From the NCBI RefSeq assembly GCF_000143415.4, contig NW_003314267.1:3460387-3524386 (forward strand): a stretch of DNA of 64,000 bases, read 5' to 3'. The notes beneath the pieces were generated by a model. It saw only the letters and a list, made by a program, of their open reading frames with translations. It had not been told where the DNA came from and made no database searches. This DNA is from Selaginella moellendorffii (lineage: Eukaryota > Plantae > Lycopodiophyta). This document shows positions 10,901-40,924 of this stretch, in pieces; the first letter of the stretch is position 1, and each line of letters begins with the position of its first letter. The translations under genes were made by a program, and so were the position numbers.

Positions 10901-12190
10901 TATGAAAAATTCAATTAAAGTATCCATTTATGAAATTGAGGAATGTCCTATATTGAAAGCCAAAAGTAAGTTAATTAGTATTAGGTCAATTAGGCATAGA
11001 GAGCTACAACCAACTCCCCAAAAGGATGTCAAATCCATAAACATATTCCATGAAGTTTGGGTTCAAATCCCAACCAACCCTCTACTAGGGTGAGGTGAAG
11101 TGAAGGGTATATATAGACTTCTAGTAGAGGAGGCTAACTTAGGCACACCACTAAATGGGAAGCCATGGTTAATAAGTTATAAGATTGAATAGATATATTC
11201 AATGTGGTGTCAAATTTCTTCTATAAATAATAGAGTTGTAAAGAACCATTTCCCTAAGGTGCTGTAAGTTAAAGGATCCCTGAAATCATAACCAAAATGA
11301 TAAAGAGTTTATCGGACGAGATTGAGTTTGAGTTTGAGTAAAAGACTAAGTCTGAGATATGAGATTGGGTCCGAAACCAAGTTCAAGTGTAAGATCGAGT
11401 TCAAGTCCAAATATTAATATAGGTTCTGGGGTGAAAGCCCAAAACAATCATCCCCCTGAGGGGGTGGGGGCTGTGAGGGGTTCCAAAAGTATAATAGGGA
11501 TAATGAAGTTAAAGATCTAGTCTTGAACGAACACTTCAGTGGTGCTTCCAAATTAAGTTGGGGAAAAGATTAAGGGTTAATAACCTTGGGTGGGAGTGAG
11601 CATAGGCTTGAGGAGTGCTAGAAAGGCTTTTCAAGTGCTCAAGAGTAACTCTTGCTCTTGGAAGGGAAATTGTTTATGGTGCTCCCGACTCAAGTTTTAG
11701 TGGTGTCCCACTTGAGTATTATTAAGCTTATTGGTTTTTGCCCTTCCTAAGGGCTTGAGCCTTCCCTTCAAGATGGAGGTGGGGAATTGACATACCTATA
11801 TTAAGTCATTAAGCTATAGTGTTTCCCTTTGGTGTCCCAGACTAAGAGATACACCCAAAGCTTGGGATTTAGAGGGTTCTATGAACAAACCTCGTGTACC
11901 ATGGGATATTAAGAACTTGGAGGTTTGGTGTACTTAGTTATTATTTGTGCCTATAGGGAGTGTAGCTGAACTTGAAATTCAATTTAATCTGGGGAGGGGG
12001 ATTAAGAGAGAGTTTAGGAACCTATGAAGAGTTGGTTGATACTTTGTTACTCGTGTAATAAATATCTAAACCTAAGTAGGATTAAGTTGGAGTTAGTACG
12101 ATATGGGAACCTTGGCAAGGGAACTTAAGGCAAAGGTGGTCGGATAGATGAGATAAATTAACAAATTGATAAAGGAAATTTTAGCTTACA
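7915..12190 (+). mobile_element. Older decayed copy (A') of chromovirus A: RT-RH-INT-chromodomain remnants and 3' LTR (11237-12190)
   Basis: Collinear with 27330-28544 joined to 42560-45617. LTR runs TGTAAAGAACC..GCTTACA. Many C>T/G>A stops. Confidence 0.9.
8026..8313 (-). mobile_element. 288-bp MITE of the Sola1-like family, TSD AAAT
   Basis: TIRs ATGCTTTATTTTGTTAAAGTGGGA / TCCACTTTAACGAAATAAAGCAT. AAAT at 8022-8025 and 8314-8317. Removing it rejoins the RT KKNKY..LPR region. Both ends match the ends of the 14-kb element in inverted orientation. Confidence 0.92.
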
Positions 12191-12959: not shown

Positions 12960-14792
12960 TCTTTATCGTTTGCTCTGGATTAGTCTTTTGGGTTTAAGAT
13001 ATCGATAAGCTATTGCTAACACTTACTTGAGCAACTTTGGTTCTTTCGTATTGTTGACTGGGATTTATTTAGATTGGCTAGTGTGATAGTTGGCATTAAC
13101 AAATATTTATTGGTCTTGTATCATTTATTCTATTTTGTTTATTATTACTACAATTGGTTCTAATAGATTAGATATTATTTCCTTTAGGTGATACATTTGT
13201 GAGCATCTTTTTTGCTAGTCAATGATAGTTTATATTTTTTGAGTAAGTTGTTTGGCATGTTATCTATAATTTTTCAAAGTTAAGCTTTATCATTGAGTTT
13301 TTCTTGATAATACACTTACTATTGAATTTTGTTGGATAGTTCATCCTATGTCTTGAAACTATAATGATTGGTGGTTCCTATATTATTAGTTTATTGGATG
13401 ATAACTTACTTGGAATACTTTTGTGTTCTAATCTATGCCTAATTCACTAATAGTTTAGTCTCTAAGCTATCATTGTTTTTGACTTTAATATTGTTCTTTG
13501 GGTTAGGCTAATATAGGCAAGCTAGCTTTGGCACTTAGTGTACATAGTGAAAGTCTAGTAATGGGGTAGTTACTGTCGATTAGTCACATCACCCGGCTCT
13601 TTCTCGATATTCCTTATTCACAGTGTGACTATGTAAATAACTCTTGCATATTTATAATAGTCTATTTAAACCTTAGTGATGGGTTTGGTTTTTTTGCTCA
13701 AGAGGATTAGGACCTTTGGCTTCTTTCTTTATGTCACTAGTGGGTAAAGCCATATCTCATTTATAGTCTAGGTGACATCTAAAGTAGTAAGGGTGGCTAG
13801 CTCCATTGGTCATTTCCTTGTTGGCAACAGCCGGAAGGTATCTAAGTTGTAGTGTATTTGCATTAGATAAAGAGGTTGCCTTTTAACTTATTTAAGTTGG
13901 TGCATTTTTCACAAAGTGTGAACATTGTAAACTTTTTTTGGAGTTGTTTCTTTGGTAGTGATCTAGATTAGAGTATGTATCGATGAGGACATTAGTTTTC
14001 CTTAAGGAGGGGAGAGTGTTGTGAATGTGAGTATAAGTATCGAAAGTTACTTACCAGCAAGTCCTTTCAAATATTCTTTCCTTACTACCATAACAGCAAG
14101 AGCTTGGTATTGCTAGACCCTTTTATTAGTCTTTGCTTTAAGATAGTTAAGAAATTGGTCTTCACATGTGCACTTGGTCAAAAGAGTATAAGGACAGAAT
14201 TTCTAAGTGCTATTAGTCAAACATACTTAACCTGGTTAGAAAAACTCATTCATTAGCTTGCACTTGCTAATATTGAGAACCCTCGCAATATTGAGTGTGG
14301 TCCTTCAATATTCGCTAGACGATAACTTATTATGTCCACCAAGACACTCTCACTATCATGCCATGGGGTTGGGGGTTCCAAATATATAATAGAGATAGTG
14401 GGTACATGGCTGACCAACTTGAGGCATAGTCTAGTACCCTCACATTAGGCCATCAGTATGCTAAAATTAATCCATTTAACTTTGTTTTGCATGTTAGTCC
14501 AAGCATTAAGATGTTTGATGCTCTATGACTGTTTTTATGTTGTTCCATATTTTTGTCCTTTCACTCATTAGGCTAAATGCTCAAGAGTCACTCTATGCTT
14601 TAGTTTCTATGCTCCTTGGATGCAAGCTTGGGAGTTTGGCTCCATCCCTTCATTCAATGGCTTAAGGCTCTAAAATTCAAGTTTCACTTTGCTGTCCTTG
14701 GATACATGGCATGTGGAGGATTAAGGTTCCACTCCATGGTTATCCTATGGTAAACCACCATAAAGTAAAGGGTGAAAACCACATATGCTACA
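12960..14792 (+). mobile_element. Decayed Tat family C 3' region, PPT and 3' LTR (14017-14792)
   Basis: PPT AAGGAGGGGAGAG followed by TGTTGTGAATGTG..ATGCTACA. Similar to 16283-17423 and to the reverse complement of 57654-59250. Confidence 0.7.
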
Positions 14793-14919
14793 TTATTATA
14801 GCATACATAATTTTCACCTTATACCCTATTTTCACCATATAATAACTATGGAGTAGAATCTAACCTTTATACATATTGTTAAGGGCAACAAAGTAGAACT
14901 TGAGTTTTAAGATATTAGG

Positions 14920-15642
14920 TGTAGTGCACCTTATCTCTCTCCCCTTAAGCCAACTGGAAAAGAGGTAATTGCTTGATGAGAGAGCCCTTAATGGCTATTT
15001 TATCCCCATTTATCCCCCAAGGTTCCAAGGATCCACGGTGACAATATATCCAAATCTCATCCCATGATCACATGTGCTACACTCACCCCCCCTTCAGAGA
15101 TGTCAATGTCCTCATTGACTATTGACTAGCAACCCCAATCTACCAATCCTCCCATGATGACATGTGCTACACTCACCCCCCCTTCAGAGATGTCAATGTC
15201 CTCATTGACTATTTTCTAGCAACCCCAATCTACCAATCCTTCCATTGTGTAGATTAGCTATTCCATGTGAAGCAACTAATCATCCACCTGTACCGCAGTC
15301 CCACGGTGGATACCTTCGTCCGTGGATACTCCACACAAGAGGAAGGACGTATGCATGGATGCCCAATACGTACGATTTCAAATTTAGGGGTAGGAATATA
15401 CCTTGCTCAAGGGTATATTATATTTTAGGTAGCCACTAATCAATGGGAATCGAACCCATGCCATTTTCTCCGATACCAACTGTAGCGCACCTTATCTCTC
15501 TCCCCTTAAGCCAACTGGAAAAGGGGCAATTGCTTGATGAGAGAGCCCTTAGTGGCTATTTTATCCCCATTTATCCCCTAAGGTTCCAAGGATTCACGGT
15601 GACAGTATATTCAAATCTCATCCCATGATCACATGTGCTACA
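14920..15642 (-). mobile_element. TRIM (terminal-repeat retrotransposon in miniature), 162-bp LTRs, TSD TTAGG
   Basis: Near-identical TG..CA repeats at 14920-15081 and 15481-15642. TTAGG on both flanks. Met-type PBS TGGTATCGGAG on the minus strand (~15468-15478), PPT at 15082-15094, internal ~90-bp duplication, no ORF. Confidence 0.92.
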
Positions 15643-16282: not shown

Positions 16283-17423
16283 TGTCGCAAATGTGACTTC
16301 GGGTATCAAAAGTTACCTGTCGACCAGTCCTTACGGACACTCTTTCCTTACTACCACGACGGTAGGAGGTCGGTATTGCTAGACCCTTTATCAGTCCCTC
16401 TTGTGCTAGTGGAGTTAACTGGGCATTTCGAGTGTACTTAGACCGGACGACCATAAGGACGGAATTCCTACGTGTTATTAGCTAAGCATACTTAGCCCGG
16501 TAAGGAATTCCCGTCTCGTTATGTCTTGCACTGGCTAGTGACAAGAACCCTTGCGTATTGAGATTGGTCCCTCAATATCGCTGGATGATAGCTTACCGTG
16601 TCTGCCAAACACCCTCGCTATCATGCCCTTTGTGTTAGTCTCACTTCGGTCCCAAATGCTATTTATGGAAAGTGTCTAGATTTGCTCATTTGGCATATCT
16701 ACGGAATGTAGAGATCAGCCTGAACACAATGGTGTTCGTCCCATGTCCAAATTCACATTCTAAGAACATTCCATATTTAGTAAGTTTCAAGCTTGTCCCA
16801 GAGACTAACTCCTGATACTAAGGGAGGCTTGGGGTGAAAGCCCAAAGCGTGTGTTCCTCAAGGGGGGGCTGTGGGGGGTTCCAAATGTATAGTAGGGATA
16901 GTGGGTAGGTCGGGCATGGCCGCCCAACCTGAGGTATAGTCTAGCTCCCGCTTGCGTGCCTGTCCTTGTTCTACGTCCGGCTTGGGTCTAAGCCCAAGCT
17001 CCACACCATGCTAGCTGGTGGAGTACCCATATCCTCGTGTTAGGCCACCGGTATGCTGAAATAGTGCCAGACTCCGTTTGGCTCTGTTTTACGTGTTGGT
17101 CCTGGCATTGGGATGCTGGTTACTCTAGGACTGTTTCAAGTCGCTCCGGGCTCCTGTCCCTTCGCTCCTTGGGCTATATGCTCGGGAGTTGCTCCGTGGT
17201 CCGGTTTCATCATTCCTTGGCTTTACGCTTGGGAGTTTGGCACCGTTCCTTCGTTCAGTGGCCCAAGGCCCTGAACCTCGGGTTCCATTCCACGTTCCTT
17301 TGGACACATGGCATGTGACACGTGGCATCTGTCACATGGCACAAAGAGGGTTTAGGTTCCGCTCCGTGGTGTTATCCTATGGTAATCACCATAGGATAAA
17401 GGGTAAAAACCACGTGCACTACA
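16283..17423 (+). mobile_element. Solo LTR of Tat family C, TSD TATAT
   Basis: TGTCGC..CACTACA flanked by TATAT (16278-16282 and 17424-17428). Reverse-complement homolog of 57654-58775. Confidence 0.9.
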
Positions 17424-22597: not shown

Positions 22598-24128
22598 CTA
22601 CTGAACCATTTGTATGAAGCGTTTCAACCGCTGCACATGCACAATCTGTGGAGGATCGGCCTGCTGGACGTCATGCCGAACCTCATAAACTTGTGGTCCA
22701 ACTTGCCACAACACCCGATACAGTCCTTTCCACTGCGCAAGGAGCCCCTTAAATAAACCACGTACCGTAAGATGGGGAAAACGGACTAACACCAAATCAT
22801 CCACTTTGTACTCTGCAGGTGGATGATGATGGGAGTTGTAGTGCCGTTGTTGTCCCACTTGTACGCGGCCTAAGTGTTCGGCAGACTCAGCTCGGACAAG
22901 TGGAAGAATGCTCGTCAAATATTGATCCCACAATCTAGCATCGGGAGCTCGTGGCAATCGCGAAGGTAAACCCAACTCTGTTGGTAATATTGGATCATGA
23001 CCATATAGGAGTTTATATGGTGAAGCACCAACAGAACTCTGCACCCTTGTGACATAGGCATACCAAAGAGACGGCAAGTAACCATCCCAATCCGAATGCT
23101 GAAAGTTCACATACTTTGCAATCATCCCTTTGAATGTCCAAACGAGCCGTTCCACCAGACAGTCTGATTGTGGATGATAAGCACTAGTGAAAGTGTGGCG
23201 TATCCCCAACCGAGATGTCAAAACATGAAATACCTCAGCCATAAATACAGGACCATTATCCGAAAGAATCTGCTCTGAACAAGAATGCTGGAACACCACT
23301 CAATTGAGGAGGAAGTATCCAACAGCAATTGCAGAGGTGCTAGCAAGAGCACTAACTTCCACCCAATGAGTCAAGTAGTCAAAAGCAATAATAACATACT
23401 CATTGCCAACAGTTGACCATGGAAAAGGTCCCATAAGATCAAACGCCACCAACTCAAATGGACGGGAAACTGCAATTGACTCCAACCGTCCTTCCGCAGC
23501 ACAAGGGGGAGTATTACGAGCTTGGCACCAAATGCAGCTACGCACATACCAGATAATATCACGTTGCATCTCCGACCAATAGAAAGACCTACGCAGCTTC
23601 TCAGTCACACGACGATGTCCCATATGCCCACCTAAAACAGAAGAATCATGGTAGGCATGGAGAAACTACGGAATAAAGATAGAAGGCACCACTAGCAGTA
23701 AATGATCATTAGTATCTGTCCCCACAAAATAAAGAAAGCCATCTTCAAGACGATATTGAGAATGTAAATGCCTGAAAGGCAAGTCATCAGCAAGTGATGC
23801 AGGATTCTCAAATGCATCTCGAAGCCTTTGAATCCACAGCTCAATCTTTTGAGCCTTGCGAACCTCATCAAGAGAAGGTAGATCTTGCTCTGTGCCTTGT
23901 GGACACTGAACGTCAAGTACAGCAACCACCGACGGCATAGAATCCTCGTCTACAAAATCCACAGATGCTAGAACAACAGGCTCATCAGAAACATGAGAAG
24001 AGAGTGGAGAAGGAAGAGGAGCTCGAGAAAGGGCGTCAGTATCAGCCATAGAACTCCCTGGGTGATGAACAACATCAAAATCATATATCTGAAGCTTCAA
24101 AACCCATCGAGTAGTACGACCAACCAGG
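22598..24128 (-). pseudogene. Element B pol, 3' part: RNase H end and integrase (zinc finger, DDE core, GPY-like tail)
   Basis: GHMG..CIWC, FDLMGP, DYLTHWVE, LSDNG, YHPQSDCLVER, WKGLY; premature stops. Confidence 0.9.
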
Positions 24129-24209
24129 TGTAAGGAACCGACTCCCCGAGATGTCATAGGCTAAAGGATCCCCGAAAGCATGACCGAAATGACAAAGAGT
24201 TCATCGGAT

Positions 24210-24470
24210 GGGACCGAGTAGAAGATCGAGTCCAAGACTGACTCTGAGACCGAGTTCAAGATAGAGTCCGGGATCGAGCCCGAGGCCGAATCGGAGACCG
24301 AGTTCGAGACAGAGTCCGAGATCCAAATCGGGTCCAAGACCAAGTCTGAGGTCGAGTCCGAAGTCAAGTCCGAGATCGGGTCTGAGATCAAGTCCAAGAT
24401 CGAGTCCGAGACCGAGTCCGAAGTCGGGTCCGAGATCGAGTCCGAGATTGAATTTGAGACTAAGTCCAAA
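24210..24470 (+). repeat. 12-bp tandem repeats (GAGTCCGAGATC-like) in the U3 of the A LTR; also at 44590-44850
   Basis: Directly visible; source of the ES/SD/LG-repeat ORFs in the ORF track. Confidence 0.85.
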
Positions 24471-25324
24471 TACTAATACGGGGTGAAAGCCCAAAGTGTG
24501 CGTCTCCCAAGGGGGGGGGGGGGCCAGGGGCTGCAGGGGGTTCCAAAAGTATAGTAGGGATAGTGAGGTCTAGGAACCAGTCTTGAAGGAACTCTCCAGT
24601 GGTGCTTCCAAACTGACTTGACGTTGAGACTGGGGCCGAGGGGCCTTGGGTGGGAGTGAGCATGGGCTTGGGTGGTGCCGAAGGGGCCACCCAGGGAAGT
24701 GCTCAAGAGCAGCTCCCACTCCCGAAAGGGAAACCGACTGCGGTGCTCCTGGCTCATGTGGAGTGGTGCCCCACTTGAGTACCTTGTGGCTCATTGGTCC
24801 TCGCCCTTCCTAGGGGCTTGGGCCTTCCCTTCGGGATGGAAGTGGGGGCATAGAGGTACCCATACTGGGCCGTTAGGCCACGGTGTTTCGCCCCGATGTC
24901 CCGAAGCAAGTGTTGCACCCAAGGCTTGGGATTTAGAGGGTCCCATGATCAAGTCTTGTTGTACCAAGGGGTGTTAGGAACCTGGAGGTTTGGTGTGCTT
25001 GGCTGCTTGTGCCTACGGGGAGTGTAGCCGAACCTTAAGTCCAGTTTATCCTGGGGAGGGGGATTGGGAGAGATTTGGGAATCCGTAGATGGATGGCTAA
25101 CACTTTGTTGCTCGTGTAGTGAGTAGCTGAAACCAAGTAGGACCAAGTAGGAGCTGGTACAATAGGCGAGAACCTTGGCGAGGGAACTTAGCACAAGCCA
25201 AGGCAGTGTTGGTCGGATAGACAAGGTAAGCTTGCAAATTGGAAAGGAAAAATTTATGGCTTACAATTTGGTATTGAAGCCTTTTCCTCAGTTCTAGCGA
25301 AGGATAGAGGCGGATTGCTGGGAG

Positions 25325-28300
25325 ATGGCAAAGGCAGGACGTAAGCGAACCCAGGTGGAGACAGAACCCCTGCTAGAGCTGGAGCCTCCAGTCGAACAAG
25401 AGGCTATGGATGAGGAATCCTTGCATGAGGAGGACTCCAGTGAGGAAACTTCCAAACATGAGTCCAGTGGCAAGGTTTAGTCGTCCAAGGCTCGATTGGA
25501 CATTCTAGAAGGACAATTGGCGCAGACCAATGCTCTGCTGGAGACTCTCGTACACAAGCTAAAGCGTGATGAGAAGCGAAAGAAAAAGTGAAAGACTGCG
25601 GATGCTAGTAGCGTAGAAGGTGCGGACCCTTCGGCGGACTGAGGCAAAACTAGACAAGGTTGAATAGACCGAAGTTGAATCAGTCCCTCAGGCAGTTCTC
25701 AAGTACAAACCAAAGCCCCCACCGGTCTTGAAGGGAGTGAACGACTATAAGGTGGTGGAGGATTGGTTTTACGATATGGAGGACTACTTCCGAGCGTTAC
25801 GGTTACCAAGCTCAGAGAAGGTCCCATGTGCAAAACCATACTTGGCAGATAATGCCAAGTCTTGGTGGAGAACAATAGAGGCTAACGAAGGACCAGTGGC
25901 CACTTGGGAAATGATGAAGGCGAGGATCCGTGCAACTTACGTTCCTCCGAATGCTACTCTGCATCTAAGGGACAAGCTGAGTAGGCTGAAGCAGACTAGA
26001 ACCATTCAGGAGCATATGAATGGGTTTATGGCAAAGAGGATTCTTGTCACGGACATGGGGGATATGGATGCGTTCCATGCCTTCATATCAAGTTTGCAAA
26101 CCTGGGCTCGTGGTGAGGTGATGCGTTGGAACCCAACCAACTACAAGGAAGTGTTGGATGCGGCCATCAAGGTGCATTTTAATAATAACCTGCGAAAAGG
26201 GAACACGACGGGGTCGGGGTCCACATTTAGCAAAGGGGCCAAACCAAGGGGAATGTATAGGAGAGGGAAATTCAAAAAGAGTTTCTTTAAGAATGAGTCC
26301 TCGGGGTTCCGAAAAGGTAAATCCGGTGGCCAGCGAGCGAGTATGTGGGGGAGTCAAGCAAAAAGAGACAAACCCATGGATAAGAAGGTCAAGTCGTATA
26401 GCAGTGTGGGAAACAATGTATGCTACAACTGCGGTGAAGTGGGACACTTTTCAAGAGAATGTCCCTACCCGAAGAAGGCTAGAGCCAATATGGCCATTAA
26501 GTTGGGTGAAGTCCAAACTGAGGTATGTAATCCAGTCCCTAACTCAAAGTTACTCATTACACGAGCAACTTTGGTAAAGAGTCATTTGCGACATCTACTA
26601 GCCCTCCAAGGGAAGCTCGAAGGTAGCTTTGTTAAGATCTTTATTGACACGAGTGCTTTGGATAATTTTGTGGCTGCAGATATAGTCCGGCAAGCCGGAC
26701 TAATGGTGTAGCGGCTAGGCGAACCAAGGACTATAGAGTTTGTTCAAGGTAGCCAAAGCACTAATGAGGTACTTCGACAAGCGAGAGTTGAAGTAGGGAC
26801 ATGGAAAGTATACATGGATTTCACCGTGTTGGACATGGCAGGATTTGACGTGATCTTCGGAATGGATTGGTTCAATCGGTTCGTGGTAGCCCTGCATGGA
26901 CAAGGTAGGAAGCTTGTGGTACTGGCGAATGCCCAAGGGAGAAGATCTAGAGTGGAGGCCCAAGATCTAAAGGTAGGGCAAAGCAAGGCCAAAGAATCCT
27001 GCTTAAACTTGGTGTCCACGGGAGGACAACTCACTAAAGGAACTAAGGTAGCATTTTTGTGCTTACTCTTGGTGAAGAGTGACAAAAAGATTGGAACAGA
27101 AGAAGTACCTTTAGTGATCCAGCGGGTGTTGGACCAATTCCAGGATACCATGCCGGAGGAGTTACCAGCGGGGTTGCCCTCCGCACGACCGATAGAACAT
27201 AAGATTGAGCTGGTCGAGGGTGCTAAGGCGGTGGTTCGTCCCCCCTATCGTTTGAACGAAAAAGAACTCGAGGAGCTCAAGCGCCAACTAGAGGAGTTGG
27301 TGGACAAAGGGTATGTTAGGTTGAGCAAGTCGCCGTATGGGGCGCTGGTGTTATTTGTGAAAAAGAAAGATGGATCTATACGCATGTGCATAGACTACTG
27401 GTTGCTCAACAAATATACAAAGAAGAACAAGTACCCTTTGCCAAGGATTGAGGACCTGTTCGATAGGTTGGGAAAGGCAAAATACTTCTCGAGGATTGAC
27501 CTAAGGTCAGGATACTACCAGATCAAGGTAGCAGAGGAAGATGTCGAGAAGACAACCTGTCGAACCAAGTATGGGAGCTTTGAGTTTCTAGTGATACCCT
27601 TTGGGCTGTATAATGCACTGGCAACGTTTTCGGCGTTGATGAACCATATCTTTGTACCCTATCTAGATCACTTCGTAGTCGTCTATATCGACAACATCCT
27701 GATCTATAGCGAGATGCTAGAGGATCATGCCGAATACTTGGTGAAGGTGTTTGAGAAGCTAAGGGAACACAAGCTGTATGCTAAAGAGAGCAAATGTGAC
27801 TTTGCTCAACAAAAGGTAAAGTTTCTCGGGCATGTGGTGGGCAAGGACGGGTTCAAGGTGCACCCTGAGAAGGTCCAAGCGATCCAGGATTGGGAGCAAC
27901 CATCGAATGTACACGAGTTAAGGGCATTCTTGGGGCTATGCAATTACTACCGAAAGTTTATCAGACACTATTCGAGAGTAGCCCTACCCTTAACGGACCA
28001 AACAGGAAAAGAGAAGATGGTATGGACAGGGGAATGCGAGGCGGCATTCGTCCACCTCAAAGGGAAGTTGAGGAAGGCTCCCGTGTTGGCATTACCAGAC
28101 TTTGGTAAGGACTTCGAGGTAGAAACGGACGCTTCAGACTTTGCATTGGGTGCAGTTTTGAAGCAAGACAACCATCCAATAGCGTTCTTCTTGAAGAAGT
28201 TGGACAAGGCTCAAAGGAACTGGCCTGCCCACGAGAAGGAACTGTTTGCGGTGGTCAAGGCGCTCAAGGAGTGTCGACACTACCTTGGGAGACACTTCAA

Positions 28301-28544
28301 GGTTTACACGGATAATGTGGCAACGAAACACTTCTTGTCACAGCCCGACCTGAGAGGGAAACAGGATCGGTGGGCCAATGCCTTGGCCGAGTTTGATTGC
28401 GAGATTTTGTACAAGCCTGGGAAGAGCAACATTGTGGTAGATGTGCTGAGTCGAAAAGCGAGCTTGAATTTGGCGATATCCAGTGTGACAGCAACCTTTT
28501 GGGACGATGTGTGGACAGCATATGAGAATGATGGTCTAGCACAA
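25325..28544 (+). pseudogene. Element A gag-pol, 5' part (gag with CCHC knuckle, protease, RT, RNase H)
   Basis: CYNCGEVGHFSREC, FIDTSA (protease), LPRIEDL, PFGL, YIDN (YIDD mutated), ETDASD. Gag and pol are in one frame with a premature stop at 26709-26711. Confidence 0.95.
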
Positions 28545-29184
28545 AAGCTCTATTTTGTTAAAGTGGGAATTGTCATTATCCCACTTGTAAAATAAGGTTT
28601 CCAAACCTTTATATAGTATATAAATATAACAAAATTCAACTGCATTGAGGCACATGCCATTTTATTTTAAACAAGGAAATGTCTACTCAATCACTTCTCC
28701 TCCCCCTGCCACTACTTCACCTCTCTCTTCTCCTTGTCATCGTCGTCCAATTTCTTTCCATCCTTTTAATATTGGCTCAGTTGCTCCGAGTCTAGGTGGA
28801 GCCCAAGTCCCCATTCAATTTTTACTTTCCCCTTATTAATAAAACAACTTCGTAGACTTCCAATAACATGCTGTAACACTTCTAGTATAATGCAAATCCT
28901 CTCAAAGAATTGTCTTTTAATATTAATACAATGGCATGGAACCCCATGCCATAATAAGTTACATTTTTAAATAAATACATGCCATCTTAGACTGTTATTT
29001 TTTGCCTCCAACGCCTATACAATAATCTTGGAATTTCATCACTCTCCACACTATCAGGATTTAAACCCAATAGTAATGCCATCTCTTCTCTAATACGTCC
29101 ACGCTCATGTTCAGTGGTCGAAGAACCCATTCGGTTGAGTAGATTATGGAGATGCGGATAGTGCTTGGCTAGACAATATACATG

Positions 29185-32100
29185 CTATAAATGATGACTG
29201 GTGTCTGTCCGATCAAATGGCTTCTGATATACCGTTCCATCTGCCATTTGGTTGATTTCTGCAGCCACCTCCTGAACTGGCCGGTTCTCTATCACCATCG
29301 TTCCAAGCCGTTTTGCAAGGTCCCCCAGAACATACGGTTTCTTCTCCCTAGTTTCCATACTGCAAGAGATGGGGTGCACTGCATATGTGTGCGTGTTTGC
29401 TGCAGTTTTAATCGGCGAGTCATCGATGATGAGGATTTCACTTGACCTAGCAGTCCGGTTCATCACTACAGCCTCTGGCTTGACGAAGATGGGCTTGCTA
29501 CCCCTCACATGGACCATAGTCAAGCAATCCTCCTGCGTTAGGAGAAAGTCAAATGGTAATATTACTCGTGTCTGATCGTGCATCATCTGTAGCAACGTTA
29601 ATGCATTGTGGCGCATCATGGATGTCCAAACTCCCAATTGCAAATTGAACCCGGCCCTCTGTTTTAAGTGTCGCATGGTCATTATTAGATCCCGCAGTTT
29701 CTCCCGTGTGATTAATGTGAATCTGTCTCTTTTGACCAACTTGCGACCGCAGGCTTTGGAGGGTGCAGTGACATTTGAGGATGAGCCACGCTCATGGGAG
29801 AAAAGGACACCGTTCAAATCAAAAATGATACAGTACCTTCGCCGTGACTCTGAAATGAAATGCGTCAGCATAAAAAATAGTACAAGTCAATTTTACCATC
29901 TACAATATTAGCGAATGGTGCTCCCGATGGTCGTTGAGAGGGTTTTAGTCGAGGAAACGTGAAGGGCGGAAATACTCTCCTCTGTAATGTGGGGTCAATC
30001 GCATCCCATGGCGTGTGGGCACATGCCATTTCAGCTGTAGACTCTGGTACAACTGGCTCAACAGTGGCATGGGGTGGTTCCGATGGCATGTGATCACACG
30101 CCATTTCAGCTGGTGCCTCCGTTGGCAAAGTGGACATGACCAAACAGGCAGCAGGGGCGGTGTAGGGAGGTTCCAATGGCGCGTAGTCAGACGATTGGGC
30201 ACACGTTGAGTCCGTTGGAAATGAGGATACGACCGGCTCGGCGGCTGGGGCGGCCTCATGCGGGTCCAATGGCGCCTGGTCACCGTCAGTTGGATATGTG
30301 GACAAGATTGACTCAGTGGTATGGGCAGCATCAAGTGGAGCGTGGTCAGCTTGCTTGGCGTTGATATGGATAGTAGCCTCCACCAACTCTGATGACTCTT
30401 GCAGGCAAGTAGAGTCCACTGGCAGATCCATATGCATGTCCAAGTATCTCCCTTCGATTGAGATGGTATCCTCCCGTGCTACTAAAAACAAACTCATTAG
30501 CACATTAAATCGACTATACTATATTTACCATCAACTGCTATTGAGGAACTAGGACCGATATCACTTGGGCGCACTGTTGATTCTGAAGGATTGGACATAC
30601 GTTTCGACCCTTGCTTGGCACTATCCTTCCTCGACACTAAAGGCTAGAGTTTGTAAATTCAACTGAATAATCTCTACTTACCATTTGCTCTGCGACCTAC
30701 ATGGACAATGTTAGAAATGGTAAAAGGTTAGGAATGGATGTACTATTATTTACCTAATGGTTTGTCTTGTATGACCTTCCTCTGCTGCTCTTTGGCCACC
30801 TCAGGCTGGCCATTGTCGTCATCATCGTCGTCGTCGTTATTGTGATCGTCACCATTGTGAGGACCATCCAAGTCCTCTTCGTCCTCCTCTTCTTCGTCCT
30901 CCTCTTCTTTGTCCTCCTCTTCGTCCTTCTGCTCTTCCTGCTCATTATCTTTCTCTGGCTCCTCATCCCCCTCCTGCATTTCTTCCATAGGCTGCTCAGG
31001 CTGGATGGCTTATTCTTCCAGGACCATCTTGGGAAAATCATCTGGCCGAATCTCCATCTCAAAATACAAGACATCCATAACCTGTTTTAGTGCGTGACCT
31101 AGGACCGATCCTCACCCGACTATCTTAACATGGTTTCTGCATGTTCTTGCACCCTTCGAAGACAACAAAATGAGAAAAACGTGGCCCTAACTTGAAAAGC
31201 ATCCCTCATCCATTGTACCTCTCCATTGAGATTGGGGAAGGGGAGTCCGCCTTAGGAATCTGAGTCAGGAGGTGGTGACTGGCTGCTTTCACTCAGCCCT
31301 TGATCTGCAATGAATGGCATGAGCACACATGCCATAACCGCGAGGCATTACCTATCATCTTTTCGTTGCCCTTCTTCCTTTTCGAATCAAACACCTCTGA
31401 TCCCGACGACTGTCCAACATGCTTTCACTTTTTATGACCACTGTCAGTTTGAGCTTGGCTGGTGCTTGCCTGTTTTGCCTTTGAAGAAGTGTCTCCTACA
31501 AGGAATGGCATGAGACCACACGCCATTGCAAATGTAATTTGTACCTCCTTTTTTCCTATTGCTTGTCTGTTTGTCCTTCTTCGACGCGCCACTAGTGCGC
31601 TTTTCAGTCCTCGTGTCTAAATATTCACAACGATCTATAATCAAAATGGCGTGAGGCCTCACGTGACCTTACCTTGTGCAGGTTGTGAGCTCGGCCCAAC
31701 ATGGGTATCTTCAACAGTAGCTGTTAACGCCGTTTCAGCATCTGGGGGTGGCCACGCTGCTGCATACAGAGCTTGTGAGATAACATTTAAACTTAAAGTG
31801 CGTACTCACCAGGTTCGCAGAGAAGATACTGTTTTTCTTTGGCAACTGTAATTATATGCTCCATTGAAGTCACCTCTTCAATGGAGTTTGTCACCGCAAC
31901 ACACGGGACACCCTTGAGTAGTGCGCTCGAAAGAATAGTCCGCCGCAGTTGTACTCGACAACGCATTTGCCCTTGNNNNNNNNNNNNNNNNNNNNNNNNN
32001 NNNNNNNNNNNNNNNNNNNNNNNNNNNNNNNNNNNNNNNNNNNNNNNNNNNNNNNNNNNNNNNNNNNNNNNNNNNTTTCCCATGCTGCACCTGGAGCTTT

Positions 32101-34414
32101 CTTTGGATTCGAAAGCTCTATAGCCGTCTTTAGTTCCTCAGGCACGGGTAAATTGACCTCCCTCAGATCAATTTGATCGGCCTTGTCCAAACGAAGCTGG
32201 GAAGTCACTCCAATCCCACTCTGCTGTAGGACCAATAACAAGGGCGAGTGTGAAGATGCGGACATTCGTCGGTATCTTCTTCTTAGCCATTATCCCATGG
32301 ATCTCCCGCATCTCCTTGCCTTTCAACCGAGCCTTCACCTCGTTCAAGGCCTTCCAGAACTTGTGATAGGATTCAGAGTCATAGATCATATAGTGGACTG
32401 AAGATTCCACCTCCGCAAATCCCACCATTAAGTCAATGATGGAGCTGACTTCGTTTGCATGAGTGATCTCCTCATTTGTGAAGTCCATCACACAAAAGAT
32501 GTTCTTGACCTGCTCATCTCCACGGGAAACGATGCTCCTCCACCTTTGATCCTCATCCGAATTCACGTATACCCGGTAAGGTTCTCGATAGGCCTCTGCT
32601 GCGGGGTCGAGCTGTTTCTGAAGCCGGCAGTCGACATCCCTCTTAATGAAATTTGGATACTGATCCAACTTCTCAGCTTTACTTTTCGTGGCATCCCGCA
32701 GCAGATCGATGAACTTGGGGGCCCCCTTCACGTACTCGTCGATGTCTTCATTTGACAACTCCAGCGCTTCTATCATCTCTTGGGTGGTGTCGATGCTCAC
32801 CCTCTCCATGGCCACTTGCTTGAAGATCCAATCCTTCAATAGCGCACGAGCTCTCAGAGTCGTGCACAAGTCCTCGTATGTCACAATATGGCCGGGAGTC
32901 ATTTTGGTCTTGTTGAAGACTACCTCACCACGTAGAAGAGCATTAGCCACTGTCAGAAGGTCGTCGTCGTCTAGAGACCGCGAGAAACGCAAGGCGTTGA
33001 GCTTCAAATCATTGGGCTTCCGGCCGTCCTCCACACCCATTGAGTTTAGCAACTCCTCGTCATGGTACCTCCTCAACACATCTACCCATTTGTCAAAAAC
33101 AACTTTTGTCGCGAGTAGAATGTTATGGATGCTGAGTGTGTCATTGACCCCCAGTGTTTTCGAGAGAAGACTCGAGAATTCCTGCAATGGAAATGGCGTG
33201 AGGCCACATGCTATGCCACATGCAACAAGGCTTACCTGCCAAGCGCTAGTTGCTAGTGCACGTCCTTGTCCTGGTTTTTGTGGATTCTTTAGTTGAACCC
33301 AGAGCTTCCGTGTTCGTGCCAATGTTTCATGCAGACCCAATTTGTAGCACGTTTCTTGCTTGACATTCTGCGCGTGGGAGATGTATATGATAGATCGAAG
33401 GGGCGAGTTGCCTTTTATCAGGCGGACAACTCTTGTCTTGAAGACTTTCTTCACCTCCTTGCCCACCATAATATCCACAACTATCTCTTGCATCGCCAAG
33501 CTAGAATGCTGCCCGGAGACGGCATAGAACCGGATGTTCTGATCGTCCAACACCTTCCTATTGATCAAGTCTGGAAACCTCATCTCACCCTTCATTGTTC
33601 GGTAGTAGGGGATCACGTCTGCGATGTCAGGTGTTACTGGACTTGCCAGCATCTTCTGCTTCAGTTTCTCCACCCACTCATCAGATACTAGCGTGTGGTT
33701 GTATTTGCTTTGGATGTCGATACGGCTCACGTCGATTGTATATACTTTGTTGGAATAGTAACAAGTACTATTATCTGCGATGATTTTTGCTACCTCTTCT
33801 TGCTCTTTCTGCTCTTTGCGGCTCTTCTTTTTGATGGGTGTAGTGTTCGAACCCGAGGCAATGGCATCACCGAGTAGCTTCTTTTTTGGAGAAGGAGAGT
33901 CAGACGTCGGCTTGAGCTTGACCACCCTTTTCTACTTCGGGGTAGTTTCCAGATCGACCCCCTTCCTCTTCGCTTTGTGAACTGGAGGCACTCTCAACAG
34001 CTCAATGCTGGAATATAGTTTTTGAACATCGCCATAGGTGAGGTCCGTGGATTCCATGTGATCTTCATAGACCCGCAGCGTCTTTGAAATTGTGGGCCTC
34101 CTAGACAACCTCTCCCTAGCTCCCTCTAGGAATTCCTCATAACCACTGCCCCCCTCCGGGAAGCCGCTAGGATGTGCAAGGTGGATCTTGAAGGCAGACG
34201 CTGTCTCTACCATAAGTGCCAGTCCATATTCTTGCATGGAACTGTATGGAGTGTCTGTCACTTGGATGAGGATCCCCATGCATTCTTTTCTCCCACCATC
34301 TGTGTTGTACAGCCTCAGATCCTCGCCTTCCATCCCGAAAGTCCAACTGGTGAGCTCCTCCCCCTTCTCTGCATCCACATTGATAGTGGCTGGAAGAAGA
34401 ATGCAATTCCTCTC
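29185..34414 (-). pseudogene. Multi-exon cargo gene: ParB/Srx-like domain, degenerate DNA-MTase-like fold, K-rich/acidic/Pro-rich linkers, FCP1/NIF-like HAD phosphatase domain
   Basis: A chain of GT-AG introns of ~45-57 nt keeps one frame (33182-33235, ~31760-31809, 31617-31672, 31496-31544, 31305-31351, ~30697-30754, ~30637-30681, ~30482-30528, ~29849-29897). Motifs FYAVSGQHS (33504-33529), IFDLNGV, VWTS, IIDDSP. Several stops are CAA/CGA>TAA/TGA, with a few frameshifts near the N gap. The first exon(s) probably lie upstream (donor at 34756). Confidence 0.75.
31976..32075. other. Assembly gap (100 N)
   Basis: Run of N. Confidence 1.
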
Positions 34415-35325
34415 CTGTTCAGAAATGCACAACAATTAGAGTTGACAGATGAAAAGCTAGCAGCTGGAAATAACGTGAGGCTACATGCCATTCACCACTG
34501 CATCATATGTCTTGAGGCTGCATCCTAAGATGGTGTGAGGCTACACGCCATCTATAACCGGACTGCACTCGAGAGCCCAATCGGTGCATGTCAATGTTGC
34601 TACTGAATGGCATGTGGCCTCATGCCATTTTCTACTTGGCCTAAAAGACTTACCATTTGAAGCCGAATGGAGGCGTGACAATCGAGGCCGGACTCGCTGG
34701 CAAATGTGCACTGTGTGTGTAGCGGATCGTAGCAGCAAGGCTACTCTGCCACTTACAGTTGGAGAGTGGCGCTAAAATCTCCCGGGACGCCAAGTGGGCT
34801 GCATGTGGGTGGCGGAGTGGGCAGCGGAGTTGGCGGCGAAGTTACAAGCTGGGTGTGTCTTGAAGTGGACACCGATGCACATGAGCGCGATGCGAGCACG
34901 AGTGTGATGCAAGCGCGAGTGGACGCCGATGCACACGAGAAACTTGTAGAGAAGGTAGATGAGCGCGAATGTGAGCGTGATCGCGAGTGGGAGCGCGATG
35001 CGAGCGCGAGTGTGCGAGCGCGAGTACGATGCAAAACCTAACCTCACACGCGCGAAATGTCACAACGGTTGGTAATCCCGCAACGTCATCATTCCTCGGA
35101 CTTGGGCGCCACCATTAATTTCTGGATCGCCGCGCGCATGCATGCACGTGAAATCCAAAAGAAATCCGCAACGTCATCATTCCTCAGACTGCATGCACGC
35201 GAAATCCAAAAGAAAGATCATGATTGGGATATCATTTAATACCCTTGCTATATTTATACCATACATGATTGGATATTCCAAAGCATCTTGTATTTCCAAA
35301 AATGCCAGATATTCAGCTAAATAAA

Positions 35326-37243
35326 GAATGGTATACAATGTCCTTCTTGATGACCCTGCAAAGAAGCATCTCGATCGAACACCACATGAGACCACACGAA
35401 CCTTATAATGTTTCAGGGGCATTTGCCATAGATCTGACCGTTATTTTGCTCCAAGATTCTACAGTTTGGTGTGCATTGACCTTTCCATCGACACTGCAAA
35501 GGGACATCACAATCAGATGCGGGATCACAAGAAACCAACTTCACTAACTCTGGTTTCACCAAGATCTAAGTAAGGAGTTATGAAATGAAAGGACCCTCTC
35601 TATTGAAATGTGTTTATGGTCCAGACATATCAAAGGATTTTGCATCAAGTTCTGTATTTGCATGTTTATCAAGCTACTGAATTGCTAAACCCTAAACCCT
35701 AAACATGTGGCAAATGCTGCGTGAAGAAAGATGCCCTTTCTGGGCAAATGCTGTAAGAGGCAGATGCCGAGCAGTTACACGGCGAATAATCTTGGCGCGG
35801 ATCGCTGACATGGCATGGCAAAGTTCGAATCACTGACATAGCACAGCTGGATCGAGGCAAGGACATGATGTGACAAAGTTCAACGTCCGACAGCAAAGTC
35901 TAGAAGCTACTCAATTTGAAATTTGTCAGAGGAATTATAAGATCTGGTTTGTCAGAGGATTTGATGTGACGTTCAAGCGTGTGGGCTCATGCAATTTTGA
36001 TCCCAAAAAATGCACCAAAAAATGCTCGGCGTCATCTGGCGTTATCTCTTGAATGGCATGGGGCCGCATGCCATTTTCAAGGGCACATAGGAGTATATTC
36101 CTAGAATATTCTAACACGCGCGAGATTTTTTTGAGTTTTCTGGAGATCCAACCGTTAGATCGCAACTAGATTTTATAGAATGGTATACAATGTCTTTCTT
36201 GATGACCCTGCAAAGAAGCATCTCGACGAACACCACATGAGACCACACGAGCCTTACAATTTTTCAGGGGCATTTGCCATAGATCCGACCGTTATTTTGC
36301 TCCAAGATTTTACAGTTTGGTGTGCATTGACCTTTCCATCGACACTGCAAAGGGACATCACAATCAGATGCGGGATCACAAGAAACTAACTTCACTAACT
36401 CTGGTTTCACCAAGATCTAGGTAAAGAGTTATGAAATGAAAGGACCCTCTCTATTGAAATGTGTTTATGGTCTTAGGGGCATTGTGACATATCAAAGGAT
36501 TTTGCATCAAGTTCTGTATTTGCATGTTTATCAAGCTACTGAATTGCTAAACCCTAAACCCTAAACCCTAAACATGTGGCAAATGCTGCGTGAAGAAAGA
36601 TGCCCTTTCTGGGCAAATGCTGTAAGAGGCAGATGCCGAGCAGATGTATCTCAGGCTAGCGAAGGGACAAATGAAAGCTAGCTATAAACATGACGGGATG
36701 CAAATAGATTACTAGGCTGGTCCTGCGAAAATCAAAACCATAATTGAAAACATTGAAAATGCAAAAAGAAAGGTTTATAATATTTTTAAATTTTAAGCAA
36801 CCAAAGGAATGTAAGTAGGGCATGTGTTTGTAAGTTTAAAAATGCCTCAACCACTTAAATTCCCAAGTAAATAAAGCTGTTTATATTTTTGGTACAGGTA
36901 AACTTTATAGCGTGTGGGCTCATGCAATTTTGAACCCAAAGTGCACCAAAAAATGCTCGACTAGCATTATTCTTTGAATGGCGTGTGGCCTTATATTGCT
37001 ATAAATGGACATACACACACAGCATAATTATTCCTTTACACGGCGAATAATCTTGGCGCGGATCGCTGACACGGCATGGCAAAGTTCCAATCACTGACAT
37101 GACACAGCTGGATCGAGGCAAGGACATGATGTGACAAAGTTCAACCTCCGACAGCAAAGTCTAGAAGCTACTCAGTTTGAAATTTGTCAGAGGAATCATA
37201 AGATCTGGTTTGTTAGAGGATTTGATGTGATGTTCAAGCGTGT
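35326..37243. repeat. Direct segmental duplications in the divergent intergenic region of the Sola1-like element
   Basis: 35326-35774 matches 36178-36643; 35775-35983 matches 37036-37243. Confidence 0.9.
35685..35704. repeat. Plant telomeric repeat / telo-box tract (CCCTAAA)n; second tract at 36547-36573
   Basis: CTAAACCCTAAACCCTAAAC and a copy one unit longer. Confidence 0.9.
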
Positions 37244-37855
37244 GTTATTTTTGAATTCTCGAACTCATTCCTAGGTCTATCATTTTTGTGCGCCGTGTTC
37301 TTGGTTCCGCTGAGCGTAGTGAGCGCTGCTTGTGTAAGCGGCGTTGTGAGCTGTGGTTTATGCTTCTATAAGAGGTTGCGGCATTGCGAGTGCCATTGCG
37401 AGCGGCAGTTTATGCGAGTGGCAGTTTGTGCGAGCGGCGCTACGAGCAGTTGCGGTGTTGCGAGCGGCGCTACGAGTAGTTGCGGTGTTGCGAGCAGCAC
37501 TGTCTTTGGTGTGGCTACCGCTTCCTCTTGATATTTGGCACTTGTGCTTCCTGGTATGTTCACCATGGAATGGCTTAGGACCACATTTAGAAATGGCATG
37601 AGGCCACATGCCATCTTGGGCCCTTGCAATTTCATGGCTAGCGTATTGTCATGTATGTTTTTACTTGCCTGCAACTGTGTGTATATCAAGATGGCATGAG
37701 GCCTCATGCCAATTTTGTGAATGCAAAATTTCACGTGGGTGTCAATAGCATGTTTGAATAATGGCATGTGGCCTCATGCTATTTGGTATGTTATGATTTA
37801 GGCCATTCTCCAATCATTTTTTGTATGGTCTTAACTTCTTTTCTGCACTTTCAGA

Positions 37856-40800
37856 ATGGCCTTCAGGGTTGGGGAAAAGGTTTACATTTTGAATGGTGGG
37901 AAGAGAGTTGCAAAAGGGACCCTTGTGTCTATGGATCGGAACTTTGTTATACACTGTCAAAGGCTTGGGGAAGGCAATGCTGCTGTATCAGTAGAGACTG
38001 TCTTCGATGGGAATGTGGTCGCTATTGAACGAGGAGAGATGGTCGTCGGGGTAAATGTTGTTGTTGCCTTGAAAAATCTGCAGAAGAAAGCAGATGTTGG
38101 GGACAGCACAAGTGCGACGCATGTTCCCTCCGTGGATCTTAAGAACCGTGCTACATGGATTCAGGCAAAGGTGTTTCTAAACAACCCCGAGAGGGAGGTG
38201 GTAGCTGAGGGCTTAGCCACAGTTGTCGATCCAAGAGATGCGGTTGCTAATCAAGAATTGGGCTGGGATGATATTGGAGTTGCAATTTTAGAGGTTGTTG
38301 ACACAGAAGAAAACAGTCTGACTATTGGAAGCATTGTGCGGTGGAAATTGAGGCATTTAGTGTTTGAGAATGTGAAGGATTCACAATCAAACACCACTAC
38401 AACTGATGACAGAACATCTTTTCATGGGAAAAGAAAGTACACCTTCCTACAGCGCAGCCAAAGGGATCTGAGCAACGAACCGAAAAGGCAGAAAATGGCG
38501 ATGGAGGTTCGAATGGTCTCGACAGTTGCTTGTTGCAAGAGGAGGTGCTGTCAACATGCTGATTGGGATGCTATTGAAGAGGAGAGAGCAAGATACAAGA
38601 CATTGTCCTGGAAGGCAGCTCGCAATTTTGTGTATGAGGCATTACGGTCATTTGTTGATGCTTCAGAACATCAGGTGGGGGGCATGGTCTTCCAGAGGGG
38701 TTTGGTCTGCATGAAGGCATGGAGAATCATTTATGGAGTCCCTCAAACCACATTCTACAGAATCAAAACTGAGTTCGAGGAATAAAGGGTTCAACAGGCA
38801 GTCCATGGGAACGACGGTACGCACAAAACCAGGGGTCATGTTGTATATGGAGAGGCAATCTTCAAGAGGTTTGTCGAGACATGTAGCGAGCAGCAACCAC
38901 ATAAAACCTGCCTCTTGGAAGATGGAACACGAGACACCCAACGAGTTCACCCTTCCATGTATACCAAGGGGGCCATATTGGAAGATATGAATTGGGAACT
39001 CCAGAGTAATGGCTATAGGAAGCTGAGCCAATCTAGATTTAGTAGATTGTGGAGCAACAGGTTCAGGGATATGAGTATAGGAAAGTACTCCAGCTTTTCA
39101 AAGTGTGACGAGTGCACTGCTATCAAAATGGATTTGTCGAAGAATTTTTGCAGCGCTCAAGAGCGAGAGACGTTGGTTAGAAGGCGGCTCGACCACAACA
39201 TCGAGCAGAGAAGCTGCAGGACTGCATATTATCATAACAGGATTCTCTCCATGGAGAGACCTGACTCTTACCTCTGCATCATCCACGACAAAATGGACCA
39301 GAAAAAGACGTGCTTACCTCGACTCAATCCTGCCCCCAAGGCAATTTCCTCATCCATGCAGCTGCCTGTGTCTCTGTTTGGCATAATCGCTCATGGGCAT
39401 GGTGCCCAGAACTATGGGAACTTCTTTGTACCTCTATGGGGTGGCGAGGGTGCAAACATGATGATTGCGTCCCTAACAAAACACTTAAGGTCTCTGCAAA
39501 GTGCGCAGACTGAGCTGAACGGCCAACCCTTGCATAAGGCCCTTGTCGATCGAACCCCATACAGGGTTCAGCTGGAGGAGGAGCAAAGCCTTGCAGTATC
39601 GCGTGGGGCCCCATGCCATCCCAGTGAATATGTTGGCCGTCAGATTGTAGGGTTATCACGTGAGGCCTCATGCCATTCTGACGAGGCTGGTCGCCCGGTG
39701 AATGCACAGCCTCATCCAAACGAAGTAGAATCTCAAGGAAGTTCTTGCGGCCGATGTAGCCTTCCACCCCATCTTCTGCTCCAAACAGACAATGCTGGCA
39801 GTGAGAACAAAAACATGTACGTCTTCGCGTACTTGGCGATGCTTGTTGCCAAAGGCATATTTGAAACGGTTACACTTGGCTTTCTCATGGTTGGGCACAC
39901 TCATGAAGACGTCAATGCCATGTTCAGTCACCTGGCAGAGTCCCTCCGGCGATCCAATGTCCTCACCCTCCCACAACTCTACGATGAATTCCAAAATTGC
40001 ATCAAAGGCACTGTTGAAGCTGCACTTGTGACAGAGGTTCCAGACTTTAAGGGGTTTGTAAGAGGCTACATCAGGGATGGATCCGAAACACTGATTGGCC
40101 ACTCCAAGCCTCTTCAGTTTCATTTCAGCATGCGTGACGGTGCTCCAGTGATGAGGTACAAGATGAGAGAATGGGACATAGTGTGGCTGCCAGTGGATGG
40201 CATTGAACTCTTCAAAAGAGATCCCATAACTGGGGAACCTATGATTCCTTAGGGTTCCCCACGGCCGATGCACCCGGATGGACTCAAAGACCAGGAAAGT
40301 ATAGTGGCCGGGATTAGACAGCATATTGCCTTCTGGAAGAGGGGGTTGGTGTTTGGTGGAGAATCCTATTTTAAGAGGTGCAAGCCTTTGTTCGAATACT
40401 GGGAGAAGATTATATCTGCTATCCAAAATGGGCCGGTTGTATATGAAGAATTGGAAGAGTCCTTTTGGCTAGAACCTAGAGCACCAGATAGTAGCGGAAT
40501 AATGTCCTCTGGAAATGCAGTGATAGACAACGATGTTGAGGATCACTATTGTGGGCCGAGGAACAAGAAGCCGGATTCAGCATTCAATCCAGTACAGGTC
40601 TGCAAAGGAATGGTCGTGCTTGTCAGACCCAGTAATAAAAAACAAATGATATGGGTGGGGCGCTACATCACTGATGTAGAGGAGGACGCGGAAACTAACT
40701 CCTTCAATGTAACTGTGGAGTGGTTCAAGCCAAGTTCCAGATATACGAAGGATTGCCTAGAAAAGAGATGGGTGCTAAATCCAAGGGATCCCAGCATGAG

Positions 40801-40924
40801 CATATCGGTGGATAATGTTGTGCATGGTTGGATGCGGAAGCAGAGTGCCACCATCACCTTGCCAGACCATGCAAGAGATGCAGCAAGAGCATTCATAACC
40901 CGGGTTCAAGGTGAGATTCATTAA
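37856..40924 (+). pseudogene. Sola1-like DDD transposase (~1020 aa when two in-frame stops are read through), with N-terminal Tnp1/En/Spm-like repeats and a C-terminal BAH-like domain
   Basis: Three track ORFs share one frame (stops at 38783-38785 and 40250-40252). CC..C..HA and KCDEC Cys motifs; IIHDKMDQ, LQTDNAGSENKN and FLMVGHTHEDVN (third D mutated by G>A). 4-bp TSD. Confidence 0.82.

Follow-up and report, generated by a model that had tools for sequence, protein, structure and literature searches.

Intron loss through an RNA intermediate is the classic proof of retrotransposition. How, then, can a retrotransposon hold four spliced introns, two of them in a catalytic domain, and pass these two on across copies that are 25% apart? 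Plant LTR elements are generally intron-less, with Ogre and EVD as the exceptions named in the available part of a 2025 review (PMC12786077), and such inheritance requires a rule for which RNA is copied. The element that raises this question lies in the window, a stretch of 64,000 nucleotides of Selaginella moellendorffii DNA (contig NW_003314267.1, positions 3,460,387 to 3,524,386), and consists of the following parts.

24129-45617, plus strand: LTR element overall, 7474 bp without its nested insert
24124-24128, plus strand: 5' target-site duplication CCAGG, repeated at 45618-45622
24129-25265, plus strand: 5' LTR, 1137 bp, TGTAAG...CTTACA, with a 13-G tract at 24511
24550-24557, plus strand: TATA-like box, in a region common to other LTR families
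25269-25281, plus strand: primer-binding site (PBS) of the initiator-Met tRNA type, 13 nt
25325-26522, plus strand: gag (Retrotrans_gag and zf-CCHC in Pfam), ATG at 25325, with stops and a frameshift in the window copy
26680-28544, plus strand: rest of protease, RT and RNase H (Pfam)
42556-44109, plus strand: integrase, SH3 domain and chromodomain in three exons, Chromo match at 43954-44106 (Pfam)
44493-44503, plus strand: PPT-like stretch, purine-rich only
44505-45617, plus strand: 3' LTR, 1113 bp, with a donor copy GAG/GTAAGC at 45578 and no acceptor behind it

The Pfam matches follow the Ty3/gypsy order (gag, zinc knuckle, protease, RT, RNase H, integrase zinc finger, SH3 and a C-terminal chromodomain), which together with TG..CA LTRs, a target-site duplication, a PBS and a PPT, the last being purine-rich and nothing more, identifies a Ty3/gypsy chromovirus. 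The two LTRs, each with a tract of 13 G, are 91% identical including gaps, with 57 transitions and 4 transversions over 1106 aligned sites. In protein searches, the closest full-length homologues were plant polyproteins with a chromodomain (RT identity 53-57%); these searches returned neither a close relative over the full length nor a product annotated as Gag alone, and one 156-aa Gag fragment matched at 72%. The PBS was matched to tRNA-iMet partly through what we take to be the 3' end of the plant tRNA. The published description of the SM1-Galahad family of S. moellendorffii (Novikov et al. 2012, PMC3350952) was used for this match as well; in its available part, the family is roughly 7.5 kb long, with LTRs of 1076/1146 bp, an 11-25 G tract, a 13-nt tRNA-Met PBS and a 3885-bp ORF that lacks the chromodomain and ends in the integrase, the chromodomain being placed in a short later ORF.

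The window element agrees with this description in size, LTR length, poly-G tract, 13-nt PBS, a 3885-bp ORF and a downstream chromodomain, and is here taken as a member of SM1-Galahad, matched by the published description alone. From its gag ATG to the first in-frame stop, which falls inside the first integrase intron, there are 3883 bp, or 3885 bp with a 2-nt indel present in expressed contigs of two sequencing runs (X1 and X3, see below). Since the ORF of the SM1-Galahad consensus has this very length, the introns described below appear to be the family norm. Whereas the published 3' part consists of two extra short ORFs, here these are exons of pol; their lengths of 316 and 309 bp are matched inexactly, a 1-nt indel and a stop being present in this part of the window copy. 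The terms 'intron' and 'splic' have no occurrence in the main text of that paper, and 'intron' is absent from the text of its supplement, 3 of whose 33 pages are textless. The annotation can thus be corrected, as the published broken ORF and two extra ORFs make up one spliced gene, so the report that no intact SM1-Galahad copy was found (PMC3350952, available part) needs re-examination.

Two further features set the frame for what follows, the insert that interrupts the element and a second copy of the family.

28545-42555, no strand assigned: nested DNA transposon, 14,011 bp, with a 24-bp TIR, a 4-bp TSD ACAA and a DUF7869 ORF, absent from expressed copies
8324-12190, plus strand: older, decayed family copy spanning RT to 3' LTR, with introns at 10043-10089 and 10495-10544

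The nested transposon, which splits pol at 28544/42556, has its DUF7869 ORF, presumably Sola-like, at 38786-40252, a NIF-phosphatase-like ORF at 29185-29886 (minus strand), an unassigned 587-aa ORF at 32168-33931 (minus strand) and a 100-N gap at 31976. A 288-bp miniature element at 8026-8313, inside the RT of the old copy, has the same TIRs, so one transposon family struck both copies. The window also holds a second LTR family (16283-17423, 13572-14793 and 57720-59242, minus strand; solo LTR of 1141 bp with a TATAT duplication), which shares its TATA region with the window element and has an internal part that looks non-coding. Further occupants are a small TRIM-like element with LTRs of about 170 bp and an iMet-type PBS (14911-15642, minus strand; decayed relative at 49472-49720), two copies of another retroelement in opposite orientation and about 82% alike (45811-48811 and 54859-57652) and a non-chromovirus gypsy pol (60917-63147, minus strand). 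A degenerate tandem array of 11-12 nt forms part of U3 in both LTRs (24200-24470 and 44580-44840), with a related array on the other strand at 1052-1414. An open frame of 308 aa in very AT-rich DNA (50149-51075, minus strand) has no Pfam match; its last third, judged by eye, presumably resembles a bulb-type lectin.

Transcripts were compared in five (X1-X5) of the 23 sequencing runs with matches, as contigs for X1-X3 and raw RNA reads for X4 and X5. The RNA status of X1-X3 is presumed (shares 0.07-0.09) and not on record, X1 and X2 belong to one study, and the contigs derive from other family copies that are mostly 90-95% alike and free of the nested insert. As the skips in X1 and X2 are exact GT-AG, cDNA is the plain reading of their material. 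An earlier note, made from the letters of this DNA alone, had predicted an intron across the boundary between the LTR and the internal region.

25226-25291, plus strand: leader intron, 66 nt, GT..AG, comprising the last 40 nt of the LTR, an upstream ATG (25256), a spacer and the PBS in full; removed in X1 and kept in X3
25260-25264, plus strand: CTTAC, candidate branch site, coinciding with the LTR terminal repeat

This intron is spliced in one of the two runs that cover the site, in a copy related to that of the window. In X1 contig 3 (depth 7.9, short side 114 letters), just 3 letters separate 25220 from 25290, so that 66 nt net are missing, and the junction is 25225/25292 with two transitions at the exon end. 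X3 contig 6 (24583-25396) runs unspliced through the leader and keeps the PBS. In X4 and X5, with 62 and 26 reads placed on 24470-28548, depth is zero at 25150-25693, around the junction; most of these reads fall at 24723-25080 and run into unrelated sequence at both ends, and are an LTR fragment inside another transcript. In X1, three contigs tile the element (25107-26218, 26206-27442 and 27444-44056, at depths 7.9, 7.7 and 11.2) with all four introns removed, and none of the five X1 records placed on the element covers the PBS. Transcription that begins downstream of the donor would have spoken against the prediction, but the leader-spliced X1 contig begins at 25107. The first letters of the LTR contigs are 24577 (X1) and 24583 (X3), from two studies and 27-33 nt past the TATA-like box, so that a start near 24577-24583, about 30 nt after the box, is likely, with the proviso that contigs cannot prove a start.

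The sequence around the sites agrees with this junction. The donor AAG/GTAAGC at 25226 (the slash marks the cut) lies 40 nt inside the LTR end at 25265, and the acceptor CTTTTCCTCAG/ is at 25291; the donor was expected inside the LTR end, given as U5 in the earlier note, and again in the 3' LTR, and both sites are in place, at 25226 and at 45578 (GAG/GTAAGC). A CTTAC and an acceptor had been put after the PBS, which is right for the acceptor and wrong for CTTAC, as the latter precedes the PBS. Being the LTR's own terminal inverted repeat (TGTAAG...CTTACA), CTTAC is no independent sign of splicing and was dropped as one. Under a strict pattern, the leader sites form the only donor-acceptor pair of the window on either strand (5 donors and 53 acceptors on the plus strand, 2 and 77 on the minus strand); both sites were in place in none of 2000 shuffles, with the donor alone in 17 and the acceptor alone in 7, figures that overstate the case against chance as the pattern was fixed after the site had been seen. 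The leader donor scores 7/9, as do those of the protease intron and of integrase intron 1, and the U content of the leader intron is 0.33 against 0.16 in its flanks (0.30-0.35 against 0.16-0.18 over all four introns).

Among other elements the comparison is thin: two other iMet-PBS elements in the window have no donor of at least 6/9 within the last 120 nt of the LTR, and one of three ends in a second Galahad-like LTR family of the window has a 6/9 donor, both samples being too few to weigh. As possible intron-less controls, five metagenome loci at 30-53% identity showed no LTR pair and no iMet-type PBS in a pattern search, and a search of viral contigs for related loci returned nothing. A hairpin between the LTR end and the PBS and pyrimidine tract folded no better than shuffles (z -0.97 for the whole intron, -1.13 for 201 nt); z -2.0 was obtained solely for a segment cut to suit it, and the hairpin is not used as evidence.

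Could the leader junction come from cryptic processing in transcripts of a single decayed copy and play no part in the family's life cycle? Its support is one contig in one run, the family's describers found no intact copy (PMC3350952, available part), and conservation of donor and acceptor can be compared in three LTRs only, one of them decayed (that of the old copy, where the donor GT has become AT). Against this, the junction coincides to the letter with a prediction made on another copy, its donor is present in both LTRs, the intron is U-rich like the other three, and the family needs splicing to make integrase at all. We consider such an accident very improbable.

The need for splicing comes from the integrase, where the window copy carries two short introns.

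43212-43258, plus strand: integrase intron 1, 47 nt, with a CTAAC branch motif, splitting HPQ-x-x-GQTER; retention leads to a stop at 43223
43676-43727, plus strand: integrase intron 2, 52 nt

We take the Glu of GQTER to be the third catalytic residue of integrase. On 42545-44570, contigs of two of the three contig runs (X1 and X2) skip 47 nt and 52 nt, which upholds the claim that these introns are real; the first skip is placed 5 nt upstream in the alignment, likely as the expressed copy differs at the exon end. Intron 1 is also skipped in one of nine X4 reads, in the orientation of sense RNA. In X3, intron 1 is retained, and contigs enter intron 2 from both sides with no sign of its splicing. 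All nine homologous polyproteins compared are continuous across the site of intron 1, so the integrase introns are insertions. An intron-less DNA copy is an unlikely source of the spliced contigs: X3 has the other letter in common at all 35 positions that it covers among those listed, with 54 more outside the list, and yet keeps intron 1, and such a copy cannot yield the leader junction, because normal reverse transcription rebuilds the PBS.

The same two introns stand at the same places in the old copy (47 nt and about 50 nt), which is about 75% identical to the window copy. Between the two copies, transversions are more frequent in introns (11 of 97 sites) than in integrase exons (51 of 1422; Fisher p=0.0013), whereas transitions, most of which reflect post-insertion decay, show no difference (p=0.90); both integrase acceptors have decayed in the old copy. 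The integrase introns have thus passed through active lineages, and hence through replication, while drifting, and such inheritance requires a genomic RNA that keeps them.

A fourth intron, missing from the intron set of the earlier note (whose leader and two integrase introns were borne out), lies at the junction of gag and pol.

26523-26679, plus strand: alternative intron in coding sequence, 157 nt, GT..AG, holding the protease motif IDTSA

X1 contig 4 skips exactly 26523-26679. Its removal deletes the protease motif and yields a message for Gag alone, in which the stop follows two codons further on, and homologues place their D[ST]GA motif in the region that matches this intron. Contigs of X3 end at 26522 and resume at 26678, break points that are those expected if protease-spliced and unspliced forms coexist, which suggests that they do. 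Since X3 breaks at the protease sites while its sole 5' contig keeps the PBS unbroken, protease-spliced RNA that bears the PBS may exist, and splicing is perhaps not all-or-none. X3 itself may be pre-mRNA or DNA.

Taken together, it is moderately probable in our judgement that the element sorts its RNA by splicing, such that spliced RNA is translated and unprimed, and unspliced genomic RNA alone is copied. Leader splicing deletes the LTR end and the tRNA primer site and would so leave the spliced message unprimed. It follows from the reading frames that three RNA forms are needed: a genomic RNA with all four introns, translation of which would stop inside the integrase before GQTER; a Pol mRNA that keeps the protease intron and loses both integrase introns; and a Gag mRNA from which the protease intron is removed, with the stop two codons later. 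As the first intron, short, U-rich and with a 7/9 donor, the leader intron would probably be removed from nearly every transcript that engages the spliceosome. RNAs with a spliced integrase would then rarely bear the PBS, so intron-free copies would be rare. Conversely, an RNA with both a spliced integrase and a PBS would be copied into a working intron-free element, and the introns would soon be lost; removal of the PBS would close this route if near-universal on molecules spliced elsewhere.

The pattern by run fits the proposal, made in the earlier note, that mRNA goes unprimed and only unspliced RNA is copied: X1 is spliced throughout and lacks the PBS, and X3 has the PBS with an unspliced integrase. 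The coupling on single molecules is what we infer from this pattern, as the leader and integrase junctions, which in an uninterrupted copy lie about 4 kb from each other, are separated here by 18 kb and no read or contig spans both. The combination named as refuting, a spliced integrase with the PBS kept, was seen in none of X1-X3 when scored by run, on contigs that carry no phasing. A missing PBS could be circumvented if reverse transcription switches templates between RNAs packaged together. That the intron is a safeguard against intron loss, as was also proposed, is compatible with the retention of introns, but the purpose this implies is not established by it, as a by-product of RNA partition fits equally. 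We regard it as more likely that selection acted on the partition between mRNA and genomic RNA, with persistence of the integrase introns as a consequence, than that their persistence was the purpose. The sister family SM2-Galahad has hundreds of copies with a single unbroken ORF (PMC3350952, available part), so the introns are dispensable for success. A stricter version of the model is possible but rather doubtful: an obligate two-way split, in which genomic RNA would lack a complete integrase code and mRNA could not be primed, and in which the PBS intron would have lifted the filter that purges introns and let spliceosomal introns settle in pol. If true, other chromoviruses may use this device too, and one could predict from it where to find retroelements with introns.

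Evidence at the 3' end bears on another way of excluding spliced RNA from replication, either by early polyadenylation behind the chromodomain or by a BARE-like pool of unspliced, uncapped genomic RNA, which would make the leader intron redundant for intron retention.

44162-44227, plus strand: putative fifth intron or putative U1 site within the 3' UTR, AAG/GTAAGC ... CCCCGTAG, possible acceptor 66 nt on; donor AAA/GTAAGT in the older copy

Short of the PPT, at 44056 in X1 and 44066 in X2, the spliced contigs come to an end, and their depth stays at zero as far as 44570, whereas an intron-retaining X3 contig continues to 44215; an AATTAAA lies at 44104, and the strong donor 55 nt past the pol stop, which the old copy retains, could work as a termination-controlling U1 site. 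There are precedents in the available parts of the respective papers, as EVD ties splicing to early termination (PMC5580714) and BARE keeps separate pools (PMC3735527). Contigs, however, cannot show ends, no cluster of ends appears among those listed, X1 and X2 are one study, and AATTAAA overlaps the stop codon, a possible cause of its conservation. Neither an early end nor a separate pool explains why an intron is positioned exactly over the PBS, and both could act together with leader splicing. As a replacement for sorting by leader splicing we judge them unlikely. A few X4 reads of opposite orientation lie in the 3' UTR at 44109-44448.

A third proposal assigns the leader intron to expression, through export or translation, removal of an upstream ATG or of the PBS as a target of tRNA fragments, or a block of the poly(A) site in the 5' LTR, with the integrase introns kept for a packaging signal or a low dose of Pol. 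An upstream ATG does lie inside the leader intron, at 25256, but the 3' LTR has GTG in its place and seven other upstream ATGs remain in the leader. In mouse, according to the available part of a preprint, 3' tRNA fragments repress through the PBS and LTR donors upstream exclude the PBS from transcripts (bioRxiv 10.64898/2026.01.22.698655), and in foamy viruses the donor that lies in R keeps the 5' poly(A) site suppressed (PMC5035957, available part). Benefits of these two kinds may be what was under selection. That the integrase introns drift faster speaks against a sequence-specific role for them, and without a PBS priming would be blocked regardless of the benefit for which the leader intron was selected. 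As the whole account of the four introns, a role in expression seems to us quite improbable, and sorting of RNA by splicing remains our preferred reading.

Removal of the PBS by splicing is a simple rule of the kind that inherited introns call for, and two questions become testable by long reads: how mRNA and genome can both come from a single transcription unit, and by what means retroelements retain introns.

Each ingredient has a counterpart elsewhere, and the window element is a member of none of the systems that supply them, that is, BARE1/EVD, Ogre, foamy viruses and Penelope-like elements; the published statements compared here are those in the available parts of the cited papers. BARE1 and EVD/COPIA93 likewise make a Gag-only mRNA through an alternative protease intron (PMC3735527, PMC5580714), which in BARE1 is U-rich as are the four introns here (PMC3735527), and BARE keeps translated and replicated RNA in separate pools (PMC3735527). 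However, these are Ty1/copia elements that the gypsy-ordered window element resembles without membership, the BARE mRNA lacks the R domain through use of a second TATA box and the short EVD RNA ends early, and neither splicing of the PBS nor integrase introns are described in those parts (PMC3735527, PMC5580714). Ogre (Ty3/gypsy, Tat) also has a non-coding intron in the polyprotein region that is partly removed for translation of Pol and kept in DNA (PMC6317226, PMC12786077), but as one long intron between two ORFs, compared to two introns of about 50 nt inside a domain here; the parts of these papers considered mention no PBS-removing intron (PMC6317226, PMC12786077). In Diaspora, LTR donors are predicted only, and its 2005 paper says that no introns upstream of gag are known. 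The available literature on Cer1, ta-TRIM, sunflower and Tcn1 held no matching case, and the literature searched, mostly outside subscription journals and Repbase-type annotation, contained nothing on SM1-Galahad introns, nor any LTR retrotransposon whose own mRNA has an intron that removes the PBS.

Penelope-like elements also keep introns through retrotransposition, including a 5' UTR intron at or across the boundary between repeat and body, but use no tRNA priming and no integrase, and the reason for their intron retention is stated as unknown (bioRxiv 10.1101/2021.04.23.441226). Foamy viruses share the layout at the 5' end, with a major donor in the LTR upstream of the PBS, in their case within R, and a spliced pol mRNA (PMC5035957, PMC7828637), and since the donor lies upstream, their pol mRNA would lack the PBS. 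They differ in that Gag comes from unspliced RNA, the acceptor lies in gag, the leader is joined to a distant ORF and pol has no non-coding introns (PMC5035957, PMC7828637). In the window element, a donor inside the LTR and upstream of the PBS is likewise in use, as seen in one run, but the spliced leader feeds gag, and the 395-bp 3' UTR leaves no room for env behind pol.
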